Shown one piece after another: positions 3,968 to 30,570 of a DNA stretch of 34,665 nucleotides (the first letter of the stretch is position 1; the number at the start of each line of letters is the position of its first letter). A program made the translations under genes and the position numbers. This stretch comes from a bacterium (GTDB taxonomy: Bacteria; Patescibacteriota; Minisyncoccia; Moranbacterales; UBA2206), in the NCBI GenBank assembly GCA_021789395.1, contig JAJYJP010000001.1:1-34665 (forward strand), in the 5' to 3' direction. The notes under the pieces are model-generated. The model had not been told where the DNA came from and made no database searches. It saw nothing but the letters and a program-made list of their open reading frames with translations.

Positions 3968-4903
3968 TTATTTTACCGCCTTGAGATAGTCTTTGAGCGC
4001 CTCTTTCCAACTGCGCATCGGATTTAATTTTGTATTAATGAGGGCCGAATAGTACGGACGTTCCGCCGGACGAGGAAATTCAGTCGAACTTACCGGAACC
4101 ACTTTCGCTTTGATTTTGGCTTGTTTATACAATTCTAGAACAGCCTCGTACCAAGTGCAAGGTTCGCTATTCGTAACATGATAAGTGCCATACGGCTTTT
4201 TTGCCTCAATAATTTCTTTGGTCTTTTTGGCCAGATCCGGAGCATAAGTGAAACAGCTGGTTTCCTCGTCCACCACTTTGACTTCCTTATTCTTTTTACC
4301 CGCTTCCAGCATCACATCAAAAAAACTTCGCTTGGCCGTTTCCGATTTGGCCGGTTTGCCGAAAAGTTTGGACAAGCGGATGATGTAATATTTCTTACCG
4401 TTCTTTTTTACTTCTTTCTCGCCTAGTATTTTTGATTTGCCGTAATTGGATAGCGGGTTGGTTTTCGCGTTTTCATCAAAGCCGATCTCTGGAATAAAAT
4501 TCTCATGGAGCGCGCAAGTTCCGCAAGAATGGGTGCAGCCGGTCGGTTCCGGAATTTCTGGCTGACCGTCAAAAACATAATCGGTAGAATAATTTACAAA
4601 AGTGGCTTTCAATTTTGTTGCAATTTTCGCCAAATTTCCCGGCGTTTTGCCGTTCAATTTTTTAGCCAGCAAAAATTCTTTCGGATCTTCCGCTTTGTCA
4701 ACCGCATTATAACCAGTCGCATTGATTATTATTTTCGGTTTAAGTTTGGTGATCTTAGAATTAGCCTCTTTATCGTTCGTGATATCAATTTCTTCCCGAT
4801 CCCAGCCAAAAACTTCATAATCTTTATCTTTTTTAAAAACTCTCACCAATTCCTGTCCAAGCATTCCCTTGGCGCCGATTATCAAAACTTTATTTTTCTC
4901 CAT
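3968..4903 (-). CDS. rfbD: dTDP-4-dehydrorhamnose reductase with an internal Cys-containing insertion
   Basis: Rossmann N-terminus VLIIGAKGMLG, then YSTDYVFDG ... YGKSKILGE (the catalytic Y-x3-K region of RmlD). About 23 extra residues lie between these blocks (see findings). The gene overlaps the rfbB stop by 14 nt. Confidence 0.85.
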   Translation of the reverse strand: MEKNKVLIIGAKGMLGQELVRVFKKDKDYEVFGWDREEIDITNDKEANSKITKLKPKIIINATGYNAVDKAEDPKEFLLAKKLNGKTPGNLAKIATKLKATFVNYSTDYVFDGQPEIPEPTGCTHSCGTCALHENFIPEIGFDENAKTNPLSNYGKSKILGEKEVKKNGKKYYIIRLSKLFGKPAKSETAKRSFFDVMLEAGKKNKEVKVVDEETSCFTYAPDLAKKTKEIIEAKKPYGTYHVTNSEPCTWYEAVLELYKQAKIKAKVVPVSSTEFPRPAERPYYSALINTKLNPMRSWKEALKDYLKAVK

Positions 4904-5897
4904 ATTGTTTTGCGTAATAATTTTTATAATCCCCGTTCTTGATGTTTTTCCACCACGCTTCGTTATTCTTAAACCATTCGATCGTCTTTTGCAGGCCTTC
5001 CTCGAATGAAACGCTCGGTTCCCATCCTAATTCATTTTTGATCTTGGAAAAATCGATCGCGTAGCGTTTGTCATGGCCCGGCCGATCTTTCACGAATTCA
5101 ATCGAACCTTCATCCTTGCCCATCAGTTCCAGAATTTTGTAAGTAATTTCCTTATTGGTTTTTTCTGACGCACCGCCGACGCAGTACGTTTCACCAATCC
5201 TGCCGCCGTGGATGATCAAATCAATTGCCTGACAATGGTCTTCAACATAAAGCCAGTCGCGGATATTCATTCCGTCTCCATAGAGCGGAACTTTTTTATC
5301 TTCAATTAAATTAGTCACGAAAAGCGGAATTAGTTTTTCCGGGAAGTGATACGGTCCGTAATTGTTGGAACAGTTGGAAATCGTCACGGGCAAACCGTAG
5401 GTGTGATAATAGGCGCGGACCAGATGATCGGACGAAGCTTTGGAAGCGCTGTACGGACTTCTTGGATCGTAGGGTGTGTTTTCATTGAAAGCCGGATCAT
5501 TCGGACCGAGCGAACCGAAAACTTCATCGGTCGAAACATGATGGAATCTTTTGTTGCCGTTGTTTTTGGCCGCCTCCAAAAGATTATGCGTGCCGACAAC
5601 GTTGGTATGGATGAAGGCGCTGGAATCCAAAATCGACCGATCGACATGTGACTCGGCCGCAAAATGGACGATCACATCCACATCTTTTGCTAAATCGTTT
5701 ACCAAATCCTTGTCCGCAATATCGCCTTTCACAAATTTATAATTCGGATTTCCCTCGAGCGCTTTCAGATTTTCCAAATTGCCGGCATAAGTCAAAAGAT
5801 CCAAATTGGTGATCTGGTAATCCGGATATTTCTTGGCGATGTAATGGACGAAATTGCTTCCGATAAATCCAGCTCCGCCGGTGACAAGTAATTTCAT
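4890..5897 (-). CDS. rfbB: dTDP-glucose 4,6-dehydratase
   Basis: 335 aa. It has KLLVTGGAGFIGSNF, HFAAESHVDRS, YSASKASSDHL and RPGHDKRYAID, the classical RmlB motifs. Confidence 0.95.
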   Translation of the reverse strand: MKLLVTGGAGFIGSNFVHYIAKKYPDYQITNLDLLTYAGNLENLKALEGNPNYKFVKGDIADKDLVNDLAKDVDVIVHFAAESHVDRSILDSSAFIHTNVVGTHNLLEAAKNNGNKRFHHVSTDEVFGSLGPNDPAFNENTPYDPRSPYSASKASSDHLVRAYYHTYGLPVTISNCSNNYGPYHFPEKLIPLFVTNLIEDKKVPLYGDGMNIRDWLYVEDHCQAIDLIIHGGRIGETYCVGGASEKTNKEITYKILELMGKDEGSIEFVKDRPGHDKRYAIDFSKIKNELGWEPSVSFEEGLQKTIEWFKNNEAWWKNIKNGDYKNYYAKQYGEK

Positions 5898-5906
5898 AGA
5901 TTAAAA

Positions 5907-6458
5907 TTAAAAAGGATTATTTTTTATAAATTCTTCGAACGTTTGCGCTTTCTGATCTTTTTCCGACAGAATCGGATTTTCAATCGGCCAATTGATTTTC
6001 AATGTCGGATCGTTCCAGATAAGTCCGCTATCGCTCTGCGGCGCGTAAAAATTATCAGTCTTATATAGAAATTCCGTATTGTCTTCCAAAGTGCAAAAAG
6101 CGTGCGCGAAACCGCGTGGAACATAGAGCATCTGGAAATTTTCCGCCGACAAGTTGAAGCCTTCCCACTTCCCGAACGTCGGCGAATCTTTACGCAGATC
6201 GACGATGACATCATAAACCGAGCCTTTCACGACGCGCACAAATTTCGCCTGTGTGTGCGGCGACAACTGAAAATGCAAGCCGCGCAAAACGCCCTTGTTC
6301 ACCGACATAGAATGATTGTCCTGGACAAAATCAGCCTTGATTCCGGCTTGCTCGAATTCTTTTTGGGAATAGGACTCCAGAAAAAATCCTCGCTCATCCT
6401 GGAAGACTTTAGGTTTGATCAAATAGGCGTCTTTTAGGGTTGTTTTTTGAAATTCCAT
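5907..6458 (-). CDS. rfbC: dTDP-4-dehydrorhamnose 3,5-epimerase
   Basis: 183 aa. FQDERGFF.E, RGLHFQ, KFVRVV.G...DVIVDLR and VPRGFAHAF are RmlC hallmarks. Confidence 0.93.
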   Translation of the reverse strand: MEFQKTTLKDAYLIKPKVFQDERGFFLESYSQKEFEQAGIKADFVQDNHSMSVNKGVLRGLHFQLSPHTQAKFVRVVKGSVYDVIVDLRKDSPTFGKWEGFNLSAENFQMLYVPRGFAHAFCTLEDNTEFLYKTDNFYAPQSDSGLIWNDPTLKINWPIENPILSEKDQKAQTFEEFIKNNPF

Positions 6459-6486
6459 AGTATTCCTATGATAGTATATTTTTGAA

Positions 6487-6512
6487 CAAAATAAAAGGGC
6501 GGGTTTACGCCC
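6487..6512 (-). terminator. Intrinsic terminator after the Wzz-like gene
   Basis: The minus strand reads GGGCG-TAAACC-CGCCC followed by TTTTATTTTGTTC. It lies 24 nt after the stop at 6536 and upstream of the rfbC start. Confidence 0.65.
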
Positions 6513-6535
6513 ACTCTTTTATATATAAGAAAAGT

Positions 6536-7504
6536 CTATAAATTGCCTTTTAAAAGCTTATTCAATCTTTCTTTGACCTCTTCCGGAGTCGCCTCACGAA
6601 GATGGTCGGCTTTTACCTCTTTTCCTTCACCCGGCGCAAAACTTACTGCTCCCTCAAGCATCGGGCCTTCGCCGATCGGCAGATTGGAAGGCGCTACCGA
6701 TTTCTTTTCTCTCGCAACCGGTTGCGACGGTTTTTTCCCAATCTTTTTTTCTTTAGTTTCAAGTTTTTCAAGAATAACTTTTTTTTCATCCTCCGCTGGA
6801 ACCGGACGGATAGTTTCAGAAATGTCCGATTGGATAATTTCTTCAGCTTCCGGTTCAGGCTCAAACTTCTTTCCCGCCTCTTCCGGCTTGAATATCGATC
6901 CAAATTCTTTCCGAGAAATAATCCCGCGTTTTTTTCGGATTGAAAATATGATGTTGGCAATAGCGACTCCCAGAACCAAACCCAATATGCTGCTGATTGC
7001 AATCGAACTTGTCCAGAAATCCCCTCTTTGCGTGAGGCTCACGATCGGTTCTTCAATAATACGGACACTGAGATCGGTCTGGATATTATAATAATGGCTC
7101 ATGACAACGGCAATATCGTTTGCCGCCTGCTGAGTAATGATATCGGCCTGCGCCGGATTTTTATCGAAAACAGAAATGTCCAAAATGCTGCTGTGTCCGA
7201 TGCGACGAATATCAATTTTAGAATCCCAATAACTTTTTCTTTGGACATCAGGCAGATTGGCAGCGCCGTCCACTATGTCATGATTTTCGGCAAGCATACC
7301 ATTATAAAAAGAAAGAGATTTGGGAATTTCCTGAACATTGCCGATGATTTGTTCGATATTCCCGGCCGTCATCGTGTTTTCCGGCAAAATCAGAATCCGC
7401 GACTCGCCCACATAAGTCTTATTGGCATTATAAAGCACGGTAAAGATTATAGCGGCAGCAATGATGCTTGCGGTCCAGAACAATTTTGATTTCAGCGTTT
7501 GCAT
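6536..7504 (-). CDS. Wzz/polysaccharide co-polymerase-like bitopic membrane protein with a long charged C-terminal tail
   Basis: 322 aa. It has an N-terminal TM (LFWTASIIAAAIIFTVLY), an extracytoplasmic domain with ILDISVFDKNPAQADIITQQAANDIAVVM (PCP-like), a second TM (ISSILGLVLGVAIANIIFSI), RKKRG, and then ~130 aa of E/K/P-rich low complexity. Confidence 0.55.
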   Translation of the reverse strand: MQTLKSKLFWTASIIAAAIIFTVLYNANKTYVGESRILILPENTMTAGNIEQIIGNVQEIPKSLSFYNGMLAENHDIVDGAANLPDVQRKSYWDSKIDIRRIGHSSILDISVFDKNPAQADIITQQAANDIAVVMSHYYNIQTDLSVRIIEEPIVSLTQRGDFWTSSIAISSILGLVLGVAIANIIFSIRKKRGIISRKEFGSIFKPEEAGKKFEPEPEAEEIIQSDISETIRPVPAEDEKKVILEKLETKEKKIGKKPSQPVAREKKSVAPSNLPIGEGPMLEGAVSFAPGEGKEVKADHLREATPEEVKERLNKLLKGNL

Positions 7505-7644
7505 AGGATTATTTTACGTAATTTATGGGCACTTGGCGTTATTCAATAGATAGGCTATTTTTGACCACTCGTCAAGTATTCCAGACTATCATCCATTCCG
7601 CGGCAAGTCAATGGATGGGAGGATTTTTCGTGTCTCGTCGTATC

Positions 7645-7917
7645 TTATGTATTACTATCCTGAATCTTGCCTCTTTCTGCAAATTTAAAGAGTGTCCATA
7701 GTTTTATGCAACACTCTTTTATATGATCCGGAGTTTTCCGGTTGTTTTCAGTTTCATGTTCCCGCCCAGATTTGGCACGGATTTTTTCGGACCCCAATTG
7801 GGCATCCGTTGGCTGTTCGCATTTGCGCAACAGTTTCAGAATCTCGTTTGAGCATTCTGAAAAAATAAATAAGCGCGCTTCTTCTTGCTTGGCCTTGGCC
7901 GACGACATAGAAATCAT
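7645..7917 (-). CDS. Hypothetical 90-aa protein (doubtful)
   Basis: This is the longest ORF in an otherwise non-coding 476-bp gap and is co-directional with its neighbours. It has no Shine-Dalgarno upstream (TTTTTAAATCTTCATG), no recognisable motifs, and it overlaps hairpins. Confidence 0.25.
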   Translation of the reverse strand: MISMSSAKAKQEEARLFIFSECSNEILKLLRKCEQPTDAQLGSEKIRAKSGREHETENNRKTPDHIKECCIKLWTLFKFAERGKIQDSNT

Positions 7918-7980
7918 GAAGATTTAAAAAGCCGGAGGAAGCCCAAACACTGAAGAGGCCTGGACTTCCCCATACGTGTC

Positions 7981-8820
7981 TCACCCGATGATGTCGATTC
8001 CGGAAAGTTCTCCGCTTCTGATGGCATGTTCAATAACCCTGGCCTGCAAACTTGCGGGATTGAATTGCTTGGCACAATAGAGAGCCAACGTTTTAGCGAC
8101 AGATGCTTTCATCTCGGTAAGTTTTGCCTTGGCAACCCTGGGGATCGAAGTCGGATCGGGAAATTCCCCTTTTACATCGCCCGGCACGTGCAACGAACGC
8201 CGCTTACCTTCAATCAGCGGCGGCCGGTACACAATGTTATCGCGTCCGCAGATATTAGTTAGGGAAATTTCCGACATTTCCATCAGCGCTGCCGTCTTGC
8301 CAGAAACTTCGTCGATTTTCTTCTCGACGACCGGCAATTGGTTTTTGAGCGTCGTTGTGACATCGTTGAGGTGGCACACATGATCCGTTGCCAATTTATC
8401 GACATATTTTTTGTTCCTGCGCAGACTGAAGAGCACAACAGCCACGATGATGATCGCTGTCGCGGCCAGTCCCACCAGAATTGCAATCATCGAACCGGAG
8501 ACAGTGCGATTGCTTTTCTTGATGCCATTATCAATGTCTTTCAGCTTGCTTTTTTCACCGTTGAGCCTGGCGAGTTCGGCGTTAAGTTGCTCCAGTGTTT
8601 TTTCCGTCGCCGCATCTCTTTTTTTCAACATCCGTTCATTCAACCAGCCGATGCTGCGGATGGTTCTGATACGTTCATAGCGCGCAATTTCTCTTGCCTG
8701 TTTAGAAGACAGCGTGGCAGGCGGAACAACTTCTTCCTTTCCCGCATAAGTAAATGCTTGCGCCGTCGACACAAATCCGAACGTAGCCGCAAGCAGCAAT
8801 ATGAACACGAGCTTCCTCAT
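7981..8820 (-). CDS. Cassette gene C: type-I bitopic membrane protein (signal peptide, extracellular coiled coil, TM, ~135-aa cytoplasmic domain), unknown function
   Basis: I set the start at ATG 8820 (MRKLVFILLLAATFGFVSTAQA|FTY) because GGGAGG lies 7 nt upstream. The track's 22-codon extension has no such support. A heptad-like segment (EKTLEQLNAELARLNGEKSKLKD) is followed by the TM GSMIAILVGLAATAIIIVAVVLFSL and then RRNKK. Confidence 0.75.
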   Translation of the reverse strand: MRKLVFILLLAATFGFVSTAQAFTYAGKEEVVPPATLSSKQAREIARYERIRTIRSIGWLNERMLKKRDAATEKTLEQLNAELARLNGEKSKLKDIDNGIKKSNRTVSGSMIAILVGLAATAIIIVAVVLFSLRRNKKYVDKLATDHVCHLNDVTTTLKNQLPVVEKKIDEVSGKTAALMEMSEISLTNICGRDNIVYRPPLIEGKRRSLHVPGDVKGEFPDPTSIPRVAKAKLTEMKASVAKTLALYCAKQFNPASLQARVIEHAIRSGELSGIDIIG

Positions 8821-8836
8821 AAACAACCTCCCTTTT

Positions 8837-10117
8837 TCATTGTGCAAAATCCGTGTGATATGTTCTGATATCATGATCCTGGGCAAAGCGATCCGCTGTC
8901 GTTCTGCCGTAGACGATGCAAATAGCCGTCGTCCACGCTTCGTAAGCCTGGATCATTTCCAATTTGGCTTCGGATCTCCGTTCCCCTTTCAGATACTTGA
9001 GATTTTTCTCAGCCTGCCGGAAATGTCCGATCGCTCCTCGGTACACTTTTCCGGTTTTTTCGATTTTGTATGTCTGCCTTAGAAAAGTTTTATCTTTAGT
9101 GCAAGCATACATATCGATATCAAGAAACGCGATCCGGAGATGCTTTTCGAAGTTTTGGAGATTCAGGTTGGGACAAAATATATTTTCTTCCGTCGCAATC
9201 TTTTTTGATATCTCAGTTGCCTCTTCCTTGCTGCAGACCGATTTCCGCACTTTTGGTTTCGGTCTTTCTTCCACTCGCGGCGGATGGAGAAACGTTTCCA
9301 AATTTTCTGCGTGAAAAAGAAGGAAAGTTACTTCTGCATCTCCCCGCATGACAGTTTTCTGCTGGCTTTTTTCGATTTGGCCGCCTGCGGAAATTCCGAA
9401 GAGCGAACCTATTTCTTGCAGAAAACCCACGGAAGCGCCTACGCCTTTTGTCGTTCCACTGGGTGTTATATAGGCGCGAAAAGCGTCGACTGGAATTGCC
9501 ACATTGGCCCCGTACTGAAGCGCTTGGTACCCGCCGAACAAGAACAGGTCCTGCCGCATGGCCAACTGCCCGAAATCGCCTTCTTTTCCCAGAAATTTTG
9601 AATCCAACGTCAACGTTCCGACCCTCTTCAATTCTCGAATATCTCGCCCGTCCAGCTTTGCGATGAAACATATTCTCTCTGAAGCAGGAAAAGTAAATTG
9701 GACATCCGGATGATAGATTACGCTTTTTTCGAGTTCGTCGAAAAATTTTTCGCCCCGCTCTGATATCATCATCCGTTTGAACGTCTTGAAACTGTTTGGT
9801 GTCACTTCATCGATAGCCAACAAAATATCTCCTGATTTCAAGTCATTTACTTGCCGCTCGTATCCGGGAAAATAATTTGGCGGAAAAAAACCCGTGTTGC
9901 CCGGAACGAACGGAAATTCCGACGCGATGTTATCGCCGTGCTGTGAAAAATCCAGGTGGATCGAGTTCTGGTTCTGACCGCCTAAATCGACTGACTGATT
10001 TTGACCTTGGTTGTTGTTATTCGTATTGCTGTTGTCAAAATCCTTTCCGGCAAGAGCGATGCTCGCTGACAACAACAAAGCCATCATTATGATCAAAACG
10101 CCCGCTACCTTCTTCAT
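8837..10117 (-). CDS. Cassette gene B: large secreted protein with an N/Q-rich N-terminus, unknown function
   Basis: ATG at 10117 (MKKVAGVLIIMMALLLSASIALA|GKD) is preceded by AAGGGAG. The track start at 10126 is a TTG. The mature protein begins DNSNTNNNNQGQNQSVDLGGQNQNS, followed by an aromatic/Pro-rich stretch, a ~230-aa central region and a helical 4-Cys C-terminal region. Its stop lies 16 nt before gene C. Confidence 0.8.
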   Translation of the reverse strand: MKKVAGVLIIMMALLLSASIALAGKDFDNSNTNNNNQGQNQSVDLGGQNQNSIHLDFSQHGDNIASEFPFVPGNTGFFPPNYFPGYERQVNDLKSGDILLAIDEVTPNSFKTFKRMMISERGEKFFDELEKSVIYHPDVQFTFPASERICFIAKLDGRDIRELKRVGTLTLDSKFLGKEGDFGQLAMRQDLFLFGGYQALQYGANVAIPVDAFRAYITPSGTTKGVGASVGFLQEIGSLFGISAGGQIEKSQQKTVMRGDAEVTFLLFHAENLETFLHPPRVEERPKPKVRKSVCSKEEATEISKKIATEENIFCPNLNLQNFEKHLRIAFLDIDMYACTKDKTFLRQTYKIEKTGKVYRGAIGHFRQAEKNLKYLKGERRSEAKLEMIQAYEAWTTAICIVYGRTTADRFAQDHDIRTYHTDFAQ

Positions 10118-10247
10118 GGCAACCAACTCCCTTCTCTTTGAATTTCTATGTCAATTTTTAGTTTTTAAAGACCCTTCTTCCTCTATTCTCACAGGACTTA
10201 TTGATAATATTTCAATCAATCCTGAATCGAATTTCGGAATTATTTTT

Positions 10248-10281
10248 CCGGGAGGAGGAAAGATTATCTCCTCTCTCCCGG
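10248..10281 (-). promoter_or_regulatory. GC-rich stem-loop 6 nt after the stop of cassette gene A (mRNA 3' stabiliser or partial terminator)
   Basis: The minus strand reads CCGGGAG-A-GAGGAGA TAAT(C) TTTCCTC-CTCCCGG, giving about 12-14 bp with one bulged A. It is followed by AAAAATAATT rather than a U tract. Confidence 0.55.
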
Positions 10282-10287
10282 TGGGCG

Positions 10288-10626
10288 CTAGTTGGCGCCG
10301 CCTTTTACATTGCCGTATTGCATGCCCCACTGTGTTTGGTGGCCGTTTGACGATGACTGTTCCTGGTTATATCCGCTCTTGTACCCGAAGTTACCGGACA
10401 CGTCACGTCCCTTCAGACTCAGATCGGTTTCCCCGTCCTGTTTGGCCGACATGCCCATCTCAAAACTGTGGTGACCGAAATTTTTGAACATATCTGTTTG
10501 TGTGTTAGTGTATGTTTCTCCGTCGACTTTGCCGAAAGTTTTAAAGCCTCCGCCAGCCAGTGCCACGGCCGCGGACGAAAACAAGAACGACAGTGCCAGA
10601 AAAATCACCGTTACTTTTCGCATCAT
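10288..10626 (-). CDS. Cassette gene A: small secreted Gly/Asn/Gln/Ser/Thr-rich protein (mature ~87 aa), unknown function
   Basis: Signal peptide MMRKVTVIFLALSFLFSSAAVALA|GGG. The mature part contains two ~20-aa repeats (KVDGETYTNTQTDMFKNFG and KQDGETDLSLKGRDVSGNFG) and a tail YNQEQSSSNGHQTQWGMQYGNVKGGAN. GTGAGGT lies upstream of the ATG. Confidence 0.75.
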   Translation of the reverse strand: MMRKVTVIFLALSFLFSSAAVALAGGGFKTFGKVDGETYTNTQTDMFKNFGHHSFEMGMSAKQDGETDLSLKGRDVSGNFGYKSGYNQEQSSSNGHQTQWGMQYGNVKGGAN

Positions 10627-10751
10627 CTCAACCTCACTTCTGATTTCTAAGTTTTTACCGTAGTTTTAAAGAACTAAAGGAACCCAAAACCTCCTTTCTG
10701 ACCGAATTAATTTATTACCAAATAACTGATCTATAAATTTCGTCTGTCCCG

Positions 10752-10777
10752 ATAAAAAAAGACGCGCATTGCGTCTT
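10752..10777 (-). terminator. Intrinsic terminator after the proteostasis operon
   Basis: The minus strand reads AAGACGC-AATGC-GCGTCTT followed by TTTTTTATC. It lies 30 nt after the stop at 10808 and separates that operon from the secreted cassette. Confidence 0.75.
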
Positions 10778-26859: not shown

Positions 26860-27465
26860 TTATTCCAAATAATGAATGATGAGTACCAGCCAGAACGCCA
26901 CGAACAATCCCGCCAAAAATGAAGCCGCAAAGATTATAAGCGGACCGATCCGCCATTGGACGATGACCGGATCCTGAGCGACTATTTTGAACCAACTTTC
27001 TTCGTTTTGACTTTGGTTTAACATGTCAGTATTTTTTGAAATTTCTTTGACGATCGCGTCAGAAATTTTTCTCCCTTGGCTGGCGTTCGGAGTAGAAAAT
27101 GAAATAGAAACTATCTGCGAAGAAAGTTTTTCCGCGTCAAAACTTCCAGAGAGTTGTCTCATGGAAAATTTACTCGCGTCAATTCCGGCATCCGCATAAA
27201 TATTAGCCACCGTCCGCGGATCTTTCAGCCATTCCACCACCGTGTCGGCAAATTGATCATCGGCTTGCAGACGATAATAATCATCGTACCGATAAGCATC
27301 GGTTTTCTGCTCGCCCGTCCGGGTGATATTCAATGCGAGTGAGTTATCGTAAGAGATCGGCTTGGTTGCAAAATAAACAAAAGTTCCGGCTACGATCGCC
27401 ACAACCGTGATAATCACGACTCCAATATGCTTTTTGAAAATTTTCAGGTATTCTTTCAAATCCAT
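26860..27465 (-). CDS. Short Wzz/PCP-like bitopic membrane protein
   Basis: 201 aa. It has an N-terminal TM (GVVIITVVAIVAGTFVYF), an external domain with ISFSTPNASQGRKISDAIVKEISK, and a C-terminal TM (LIIFAASFLAGLFVAFWLVLII). Confidence 0.55.
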   Translation of the reverse strand: MDLKEYLKIFKKHIGVVIITVVAIVAGTFVYFATKPISYDNSLALNITRTGEQKTDAYRYDDYYRLQADDQFADTVVEWLKDPRTVANIYADAGIDASKFSMRQLSGSFDAEKLSSQIVSISFSTPNASQGRKISDAIVKEISKNTDMLNQSQNEESWFKIVAQDPVIVQWRIGPLIIFAASFLAGLFVAFWLVLIIHYLE

Positions 27466-30198: not shown

Positions 30199-30570
30199 GC
30201 ATTGAATTTAAAATTTATCAAAGCAAATCTGTAAGCCGGATTTTGTCGAGGACAATCATTTATCTGGTCCTGTCATTACTGACAGGATCAAGCGGCACTT
30301 CTAGTGCTTCCTAGGGGAGAACTAGACACGACCTTGCATTCAGGTAAGGATTTAGCCGTTTCACTCCCGGCGTTTCCGTCGGGACTATCCCCGAAGGGAT
30401 CCGCAAGCCTTTCAACCCGCGGCGTCTCTGCTCGCACCTCTCGAGTTTCCTCGGACGGGCGTTACCCGCTACCTTTCCCCGCCTAACGGGGCGAATGTCC
30501 GGACTTTCCTCAATCCCGCAAGCGGAATTGTAATTGTCTAATTTGCTTTGACAAAGCCTAAATTCAATGC
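30199..30570 (-). ncRNA. rnpB: RNase P RNA (bacterial type A-like), including an extended closing helix
   Basis: The minus strand contains GAGGAAAGTCCGGAC (5' P4 strand) and ACAAAATCCGGCTTA (3' P4 strand), GGGTAACGCC, and a P2-like pairing GACAAT/ATTGTC. The core P1 pairs 30541-30551 with 30218-30228, and the helix extends to 30559-30570 with 30199-30210. The plus-strand ORF 30304-30486 lies inside it and is spurious. Confidence 0.88.

Follow-up and report, generated by a model that had tools for sequence, protein, structure and literature searches.

The ways in which the ultra-small bacteria of the Candidate Phyla Radiation (CPR, or Patescibacteria) assemble their envelope and make contact with other cells are a central open question, and about half of the genes of these bacteria have no annotation. 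A stretch of 34,665 nucleotides from such an organism (positions 1–34,665 of contig JAJYJP010000001.1, assembly GCA_021789395.1; the whole stretch is called the window here) carries three consecutive genes for exported proteins, designated A, B and C, and the locus raises this question in a specific form: what do these three proteins do at the surface of the cell? The answer favored here, with a probability of about 40%, is that A-B-C encodes a structural module of the cell envelope that has no enzymatic component and is restricted to the Parcubacteria/CPR lineage. The module is a concrete and testable candidate, consisting of a conserved stalk and an anchorless head whose fold is unmatched in the PDB or BFVD.

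An initial annotation, made from the sequence alone, had described three co-directional genes with Sec-type signal peptides ending in AxA, insulated on both sides and placed in a CPR-like cell, and this description holds. The three open reading frames (ORFs) lie on the minus strand (Table 1), and at each N-terminus a basic residue is followed by a hydrophobic stretch that runs up to an AxA site. Export signals and transmembrane (TM) helices were called from Kyte-Doolittle hydropathy and motif inspection; windows above 1.6 occur only at the N-termini of A, B and C and at the single TM helix of C. The terminator upstream of A (recovered by the scan with its T-run), the 476-bp gap after C, the 16-nt spacing of B and C with GGGAGG, and the N/Q run and Pro/aromatic stretch of B are likewise present, the last being highly conserved in the family. 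The coiled coil and single TM helix proposed for C stand, and its cytoplasmic part measures 146 aa. None of the three products has a recognizable family in Pfam, NCBIfam, PHROGs, PADLOC or PDB sequences, nor has B by Foldseek against the PDB and BFVD, and no feature was found that would place them with curli, TasA, Fap or pilins. The organism is Parcubacteria-like, two relatives being named “Parcubacteria group bacterium”.

Conservation of the B-C Pair in Related Loci

Related loci were labeled L001 to L017, together with the P0009 contig. In the window, which is L006 of this set, the gene order is PpiC-Fer4-HtrA-ClpB-DUF5656-HtrA-A-B-C. The order is HtrA-A(125 aa)-B-C-GT2-deacetylase in L011 (Parcubacteria; GT2, glycosyltransferase family 2) and ClpB-DUF5656-HtrA-197 aa-B-C-GT2-deacetylase on the P0009 contig. 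L001, a Parcubacteria metagenome-assembled genome, has HtrA-B-C followed by a chitin-synthase-like GT2 and deacetylases, A being absent within the 17 kb read. L004, on a 408-kb contig, holds A-B-C between rplU and a radical-SAM gene, not after htrA. The order is sortase-B-C(169 aa)-Wzz-like-RmlC/B/D-SHMT in L013, with downstream genes as in the window; LPATG low-complexity protein-sortase-B-GT1 in L014, where C is absent; sortase-A-like(139 aa)-B-C(273 aa, LysM) in L015; and LPATG protein-sortase-B-C(330 aa) in L017. L007 provides A-B, with B incomplete at the contig end, L009 B-C(151 aa), and L010 B-C(326 aa, LysM).

A C-type gene directly follows B in 10 of the 11 independent loci with a visible downstream gene, the exception being L014, and it does so even where the flanking genes differ (L015, L017). 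The identity of B to the window protein drops to ~20–27% across the loci that keep B-C. The spacer between the two genes is 3, 9, 11, 15 or 16 nt in five relatives (six loci including the window) and 59, 65 or 94 nt in three, and B and C are probably co-translated. Because A is absent in L001 and its slot holds a sortase in other lineages, B-C, not A, is the invariant core, with A as a frequent, replaceable partner. The trio also moves as a unit, since L004 keeps A-B-C in an unrelated neighborhood. The autonomous, conserved extracytoplasmic cassette is supported, its order being kept over about 11 independent loci and relocated in L004.

The possibility of spurious or decaying genes was addressed by the ratio of nonsynonymous to synonymous substitutions (dN/dS) between the two closest loci, L004 and L007; remoter pairs are saturated at synonymous sites. 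A yields a ratio of 0.15; for B, of which the first 106 codons (the 5′ part) were compared, the ratio is 0.31. As these values are not near 1, A, B and C are indicated to be real genes under purifying selection. That the three are independent hypothetical envelope genes, adjacent by inherited gene order only and without joint function, is the least likely of the explanations considered here: the htrA-proximal position common to most loci, the separate transcript of A, and the missing A in L001 and C in L014 fit this explanation, but the trio is intact in the different L004 neighborhood, the 3–16 nt spacing of B and C persists at 20–27% B identity, and a C-type gene follows B despite the differing surroundings in L015 and L017.

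The module appears so far to be confined to Parcubacteria-type ultra-small bacteria. No match to B was obtained by tblastn among 50,697 phage and 72,556 plasmid records, and an IMG/VR scan found no relative; a phage or plasmid origin of the module thus received no support. Degenerate-pattern scans of genome and metagenome contigs, which reach close relatives only, returned an already known Parcubacteria contig or nothing.

The Membrane-Anchored Protein C

C is a type-I bitopic protein, and the nine translated C-type proteins follow one plan: a helical ectodomain of 81–233 aa, one TM helix and a cytoplasmic tail of 9–153 aa, preceded in eight of the nine by a signal peptide. Eight sequenced related loci encode this architecture downstream of B. 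No Pfam, NCBIfam, PHROGs or PADLOC family was matched by C, and six C-type proteins gave only LysM (in two) and coiled-coil noise. The LysM domains exceed the Pfam cut-off in the C-type proteins of L010 (encoded at 1421–2401; E 1.5e-10) and L015 (encoded at 4789–5610; E 1.7e-06) and sit between the signal peptide and the coiled coil, which implies that the predicted stalk protein would bind peptidoglycan in these lineages. The cytoplasmic domain of the 330-aa protein of L017 was aligned to that of C of the window. An AlphaFold2 (AF2) model of C from a 2-sequence alignment reached a mean predicted local distance difference test score (pLDDT) of 44.8; it was used for secondary structure only and was kept out of the fold search.

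Downstream of C, a hairpin with weak statistical support (z = −2.15; 5 of 200 shuffles as stable) was not reported by the consensus terminator scan, and it is plausible that this hairpin is the terminator of the B-C transcript.

The Secreted Protein B

The family of B was collected by searching 1.8 billion cluster representatives exhaustively with a profile. It comprises 89 clusters at 50% identity (E < 1e-10 in 49 and < 1e-30 in 10), mostly of 370–480 aa; an indexed search had yielded only two relatives of ~40% identity, one of them annotated “Parcubacteria group bacterium”. A signal-peptide-like N-terminus is present in 70 of the 78 full-length members, and a further TM helix, a lipobox or an LPXTG signal in none. 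The median Q+N content of residues 26–80 in the family is 25%. The Pro/aromatic motif that follows is among the most conserved parts of B, with P69, P79 and Y86 invariant in 12 sequences. The cysteines of B members cluster within the last 150 residues; all 12 sequences keep C315, conservation of C339 is at least 90%, and C295 reaches at least 90% across the 89. No conserved residues of a catalytic type are evident in B, and its N-domain has no conserved His/Asp/Ser/Cys set in the 12 sequences. No consistent Pfam or NCBIfam match was obtained for B and its 88 relatives and no PHROGs or PADLOC match for B, and among PDB sequences the profile found no match with an E-value under 0.08.

The AF2 model of B, built from the 89-sequence alignment, has a mean pLDDT of 78.4, with 230 residues of at least 90 and a core above 90; the N-terminal region, including the Pro/aromatic motif, is disordered. 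Two very long strands, 206–233 (28 residues) and 241–270 (30 residues), pair as a hairpin, of which only the base is confident, the insertion 218–255 between the confident strands being modeled at pLDDT ~43–70. At the tip (224–246), G/S/A alternate with W/F/L/I/V almost without charge in 12 divergent members. Foldseek of this model against the PDB and BFVD returned nothing at E ≤ 0.001. The top match, FvfA (5evf), had E 0.039, a root-mean-square deviation of 17 Å and a template-modeling (TM) score of 0.41 on a target of 105 residues, and was not taken to be meaningful; the literature search returned no paper on FvfA. Two weak groups of matches recurred. The first, restricted to the hairpin region, consists of the hairpins of β-pore formers (NetB/NetF, CDTb, iota Ib, aerolysin and perforin-2 P2) and the TraT decamer, with E ≥ 0.1, probability ≤ 0.3 and TM score ≤ 0.1. 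The second comprises TPR proteins (OGT, Ski3, SusD and Cpr7) matched to the C-terminal domain, with probability ≤ 0.66 and E ≥ 0.46. These groups would mirror the two striking elements of the predicted model, and homology is not established thereby. B matches no known family or solved structure in the PDB or BFVD.

The hairpin invites the idea of a contact-dependent pore or docking device, in which the hairpins of several B subunits would oligomerize into a membrane-inserting β-barrel, entering for instance the membrane of an episymbiont’s host, while B is held out on the C stalk. The extended 28+30-residue hairpin with its conserved, nearly uncharged tip, the lack of an own anchor in B, and the fact that pore-former hairpins are its only recurring β-rich Foldseek matches are in line with this idea. 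It is nevertheless unlikely: all of those matches are non-significant, the tip has pLDDT < 50, the α/β and helical core of B differs from the β-sandwich cores of known β-pore formers, the gene lies in a housekeeping envelope core and not in a variable or virulence-type region, and host association is not established for these organisms. Marginally less likely still is a new class of secreted ring or pore formers of which B would be the first member: on the C stalk, its hairpins would build a β-barrel that spans the cell’s own outer layer or enters a partner membrane and would thereby give genome-reduced Parcubacteria a conduit or docking device for exchange with a host, with A or sortase-anchored low-complexity proteins as a coat or adhesin.

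Gene A, a Putative Replaceable Partner

A had been described as giving a mature protein of ~87 aa rich in G, N, Q, S and T and as being followed by a stem-loop, which agrees with the composition of the 87 residues (G 16, S 8, and K, T, N and Q 7 each) and with the hairpin found past its stop codon. Of the two internal repeats also proposed, both are present in the window, but they are only faintly recognizable in homologues and not conserved. A showed no Pfam family (scanned up to E 1) and no NCBIfam, PHROGs or PADLOC family, and its four homologues no Pfam family at E up to 0.01. These homologues (P0006, P0008, L011 with 125 aa and L015 with 139 aa) represent four further loci, so that A precedes B in five loci in all, with a strong hairpin 3′ of the A stop in each. 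In the window, a 96-nt stretch folds at −28.6 kcal/mol (z = −3.4, none of 200 shuffles as stable); the z-scores of the other four are −3.7, −5.8, −7.6 and −4.4, and a U-run occurs solely in L015. Because an equivalent hairpin exists in all four other A-bearing loci, the hairpin is probably a terminator or an mRNA 3′-end stabilizer that uncouples A from B-C. A would accordingly form a separate transcription unit with its own stem-loop, as judged from this sequence arrangement.

Upstream of A, a strong Shine-Dalgarno-like AAAGGAGG (10690–10697) precedes a TTG-started mini-ORF of 10 codons (10655–10687), which could be a leader peptide or a coincidence. A second small hairpin lies between the A hairpin and B around TTAACA/TTGACA (e.g., GCGCUGGUUAAUAAAAAUUAACAAGC) in L004 (7790–7840), L007 (930–975) and L011 (5850–5885); in the window, TTGACA stands ~35 nt upstream of the B start. 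The second hairpin may overlap the B-C promoter.

More distant relatives (L014 at 4262–5695, L017 at 106–1694, L013 at 1–348 and L015 at 1616–2476) encode, directly upstream of B, a sortase whose N-terminal region is faintly TSP3-like. The gene before this sortase in L014 and L017 specifies a low-complexity protein rich in Ser, Ala, Gly and Asp, with a His/Lys-rich stretch and an LPATG signal at its end, and this protein occupies the A slot of the window. These LPATG proteins are not homologous to A.

The initial annotation had cast A as an abundant small secreted subunit and B as a large accessory protein. Nothing in the loci marks A as a polymerizing fiber or amyloid subunit or B as its accessory; A is absent in L001, and its slot is taken by a sortase elsewhere. 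Host attachment, also suggested in that annotation, is a conceivable role. The corresponding explanation, a fiber or functional-amyloid module in which A is the abundant polymerizing subunit, B an extracellular nucleator or chaperone and C the anchor, is improbable, if slightly less so than the pore. The separate transcription unit of A, closed by a strong 3′ hairpin, would allow A to be expressed well above B-C; A is small, secreted, rich in G, N, Q and aromatic residues, and has a conserved C-terminal motif and a low dN/dS; and a TPR-like domain and a Q/N-rich linker are present in B. Against this, L001 keeps B-C in the same context without A, the slot holds a sortase in L013, L014 and L017 and in the latter two also the unrelated LPATG protein, the repeats are weak, Q+N make up just 16% of mature A, and no curlin, TasA, Fap or pilin Pfam match was seen in any A, B or C homologue tested. 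A bacteriocin with its immunity protein was also considered and rejected: A is kept at a constant place among housekeeping genes and is under purifying selection, and neither B nor C resembles immunity or ABC proteins.

A Putative Structural Module of the Envelope

In the structural envelope module favored here, C would be exported, lose its signal peptide and be held in the cytoplasmic membrane by its single C-terminal TM helix. Its α-helical, coiled-coil-like stalk, ~80–230 residues long across the lineages, would point outward through the wall zone and in some lineages bear a LysM peptidoglycan-binding domain. B would be the secreted head. As it has no TM helix, lipobox, LPXTG signal or wall-binding domain, and therefore no anchor of its own, its retention at the surface would have to depend on protein contacts, for which the C stalk is the most probable partner, and/or on the uncharged Gly/aromatic hairpin, which could enter a membrane or pack into a homo-oligomeric β-collar. 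The Pro/aromatic N-terminal motif and the Cys-rich TPR-like C-terminal domain are candidate partner-binding parts of B. A, a separately transcribed small secreted protein rich in G, N, Q and aromatic residues, would be an exchangeable third partner, its position being taken in other lineages by a sortase and in two of them also by a sortase-anchored low-complexity protein.

What goes beyond anatomy and synteny in this picture, namely B-C contact, oligomerization or membrane insertion of B, A as a displayed or organized partner and the scaffold role, is inferred. Several points weigh against it. The B-C, A-B and B-B contacts are all putative; the distal hairpin has pLDDT < 50, which makes the extended shape uncertain, and the C model is unusable as a fold. 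The distant C-type proteins are alike in architecture only, and in L014 no C-type gene follows B. The absence of A beside B in L001 weakens an obligatory three-part complex. The position near htrA and wall genes could partly reflect gene order inherited within one phylum, and uncharacterized conserved envelope genes are common in CPR genomes. Finally, the fold search covered the PDB and BFVD, and a cellular structural relative may exist elsewhere.

As a scaffold, the module would still define one component of the Parcubacteria surface, which is poorly characterized to date; should B form rings or pores, it would represent a new kind of surface machine. The module sits in the envelope-biogenesis core of Parcubacteria genomes and has a recurring link to sortase and LysM variants. 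The literature on DUF5656, the Parcubacteria envelope and Patescibacteria pore formers yielded nothing specific.

Genomic Neighborhood

Nearly all genes between 843 and 34559 of the window lie on the minus strand and form an envelope-biogenesis and proteostasis island. One part holds a Bac_transf priming sugar transferase, three GT4 glycosyltransferases, Wzz and DUF4012; the next holds LepA, DivIC, a PpiC foldase, a ferredoxin, a trypsin-like protease without PDZ, ClpB, DUF5656 and HtrA; and past A-B-C come a Wzz-like protein, RmlC, RmlB, RmlD, SHMT and two nucleotidyl transferases. A GH18 protein, a cupin and an SPW-repeat protein occupy the far end, and a 549-aa ORF lies between LepA and DUF4012; in L001, a MurJ gene is found upstream of LepA. 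The minus strand also encodes a bacterial class A RNase P RNA at 30216–30549 (138.7 bits, E 9e-43). No tRNA gene was found anywhere in the window, and no sortase among its called genes. The neighbors counted for an envelope role across the loci are the PpiC-type foldase, two HtrA, DUF5656, the sortase and wall-polysaccharide genes; the neighbors in L004 are rplU and the radical-SAM gene. In L015, B-C is followed by a 1139-aa protein (5826–9245) with no Pfam family on record, beyond which lies a weak Pkinase-type gene. The features of the cassette are collected in Table 1.

Table 1. Coordinates of the A-B-C cassette, its parts and its boundaries in the window
Feature	Positions	Strand	Description
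Intrinsic terminator of htrA	10752–10777 (scan: 10777–10759)	minus	7-bp stem, 4 G-C pairs, T-run; upstream cassette boundary
Gene A	10288–10626	minus	112-aa precursor
A signal peptide	10552–10626	minus	residues 1–24/25; ..VALA/GGG (hydropathy and motif)
A repeats K.DGET...NFG	10474–10530 and 10384–10443	minus	residues 33–51 and 62–81; weak
A C-terminal motif	10303–10392	minus	conserved, aromatic/Gly/Gln; FGY.SGY.QEQ..Q.WG.QYG
Stem-loop after A	10248–10281	minus	G+C-rich, CCGGGAG.GAGGA...TCCTCCTCCCGG; 14-bp stem, 7 nt past A stop, no U-run
Gene B	8837–10117	minus	426 aa from ATG; secreted, anchorless
B signal peptide	10043–10117	minus	..IALA/GKD
B Q/N-rich linker	9923–10042	minus	
B Pro/aromatic motif	9842–9922	minus	conserved; FP.VPG..G..PPNY.PGY.RQVN
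B α/β domain	9503–9841	minus	residues 95–205
B β-hairpin insertion	9308–9502	minus	strands 206–233 and 241–270; uncharged Gly/Ser/Ala/aromatic tip at 9380–9448
B helical (TPR-like) domain	8876–9235	minus	Cys-containing; residues 297–414
B-C spacer	8821–8836	minus	16 nt, carries GGGAGG Shine-Dalgarno
Gene C	7981–8820	minus	279 aa from ATG after GGGAGG; type-I bitopic
C signal peptide	8755–8820	minus	..TAQA/FTY
C ectodomain	8491–8754	minus	helical/coiled-coil, 88 aa; conserved VPP motif near N-terminus
C TM helix	8422–8490	minus	residues 111–133
C cytoplasmic domain	7984–8421	minus	146 aa
Stem-loop after C	7925–7971	minus	followed by GGCUUUUUA (U-run); 10 nt past C stop
Gap from C to Wzz-like gene	7505–7980		476 bp; downstream cassette boundary

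The gap after C is not conserved in relatives, and an ORF of 87–90 aa that the gene caller placed in it (7645–7917) has no counterpart there. Apart from a sub-threshold ROSE_3 match in the gap (7752–7811; 24 bits vs. a gathering score of 43 bits, E 0.049), Rfam gave nothing in or around the cassette. Beyond the gap, the 322-aa protein encoded at 6536–7504 weakly matches the CspC-type polysaccharide chain-length determinant TIGR01006 (E 0.011). Its homologues lie near B-C at variable distance in L001, L011 and L013, and at the C-terminus it ends much like the homologue in L013 (..RLNKLLKGNL in the window, ..RLNDLLRGNL in L013); a second Wzz-type gene of the window is at 26860–27465. In L001, L011 and the P0009 contig, the slot equivalent to the gap contains the genes for a chitin-synthase-like GT2 and polysaccharide deacetylases, and because this slot is filled there, the window genome may have lost or never gained the block.

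Such neighbors raise the question of whether B, with its TPR-like and β elements, and the C stalk form a scaffold that guides wall polysaccharide or exopolysaccharide from the neighboring glycosyltransferases through the wall. The GT2 and deacetylase genes after B-C in three loci, the Wzz-like protein and RmlC/B/D after B-C in the window and L013, and the polysaccharide and envelope character of the whole window would suit such a role; TPR proteins are the best-probability weak matches of the C-terminal domain of B, and a loose likeness to the TPR/porin and co-polymerase components of Gram-negative systems may be drawn. The explanation is about as improbable as the ring former, given that the L004 trio has no polysaccharide neighbors, the GT2/deacetylase block is missing from the window, none of the TPR, Wzz, OPX or porin models was matched, C has one TM helix after a cleaved signal peptide where polysaccharide co-polymerase (PCP) proteins have two, and Parcubacteria are regarded as without an outer membrane needing a porin.

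Comparison with Known Systems

Among fiber systems, the curli (Csg) machinery is similar in that the small secreted Gly/Asn/Gln/aromatic-rich A is encoded beside larger exported proteins and B is predicted to bear a long β-hairpin, as channel-forming subunits do. In contrast to curli, A and its four homologues have no curlin repeat (Pfam Curlin_rpt), B and its 88 relatives have no match to CsgG, CsgE or CsgF, nor was CsgG found by Foldseek against the PDB, B is not a lipoprotein (lipobox in 0 of 78 full-length members), and A is dispensable in the close relative L001. Organisms of this type are not known to have an outer membrane. The TasA/TapA/SipW system differs in that A, B and C have no corresponding Pfam or NCBIfam match and no signal peptidase gene occurs among the window genes scanned, and Fap in that no FapC-type repeat or FapF barrel was matched in these databases. 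Type IV pilins have class III G/F or G/M..E signal sequences, unlike the Sec-type AxA signal peptides of A, B and C, which also show no pilin Pfam match.

β-Pore-forming toxins and ring lipoproteins (NetB/α-hemolysin, aerolysin, binary-toxin B and TraT) share with B a long, Gly/Ser-rich, largely uncharged hairpin that protrudes from a globular domain, and they are its sole β-rich Foldseek neighbors, at insignificant scores (E ≥ 0.1 for the whole group and ≥ 0.13 for the toxin families). Their amphipathic, barrel-forming hairpin may have a counterpart in the conserved, nearly charge-free tip of small and hydrophobic/aromatic residues in B, which is modeled at pLDDT < 50. Unlike these toxins, B has a core of an α/β domain and a helical bundle, no Pfam leukocidin, aerolysin or MACPF match, and a housekeeping context with a dedicated membrane-anchored partner. 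Synthase-dependent exopolysaccharide export (PgaA, BcsC, AlgK-AlgE or PelB) differs in that no TPR or porin Pfam model was matched in the 89 B members, and the Wzz/PCP co-polymerases in that C has a cleaved signal peptide and one TM helix, not two, and no Pfam Wzz match.

The topology of C is closest to that of TIGR04211 (“SH3_and_anchor”, YgiM-type), in which a signal peptide is followed by a binding domain, a coiled coil and a C-terminal TM anchor. C and the C-type proteins share this topology, and LysM takes the place of SH3 in two lineages. The coiled coil of C scores only 17 bits (E 0.0034) vs. the 65-bit cut-off, and an SH3 domain is absent. TIGR04211 is itself a family not known to have an established function. 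Gram-positive sorting neighborhoods, with a sortase and LPXTG proteins or a PrsA/HtrA zone, are similar in that relatives have a sortase upstream of B, accompanied in two loci by an LPATG protein, and in that the window trio follows PpiC-type foldase and HtrA genes. Unlike sortase/LPXTG systems, A, B and C lack a sorting signal (LPXTG in 0 of 78 B relatives) and the window has no called sortase, and characterized sortase or pilus loci have no counterpart of B and C. The module belongs to no characterized family or system among those tested.

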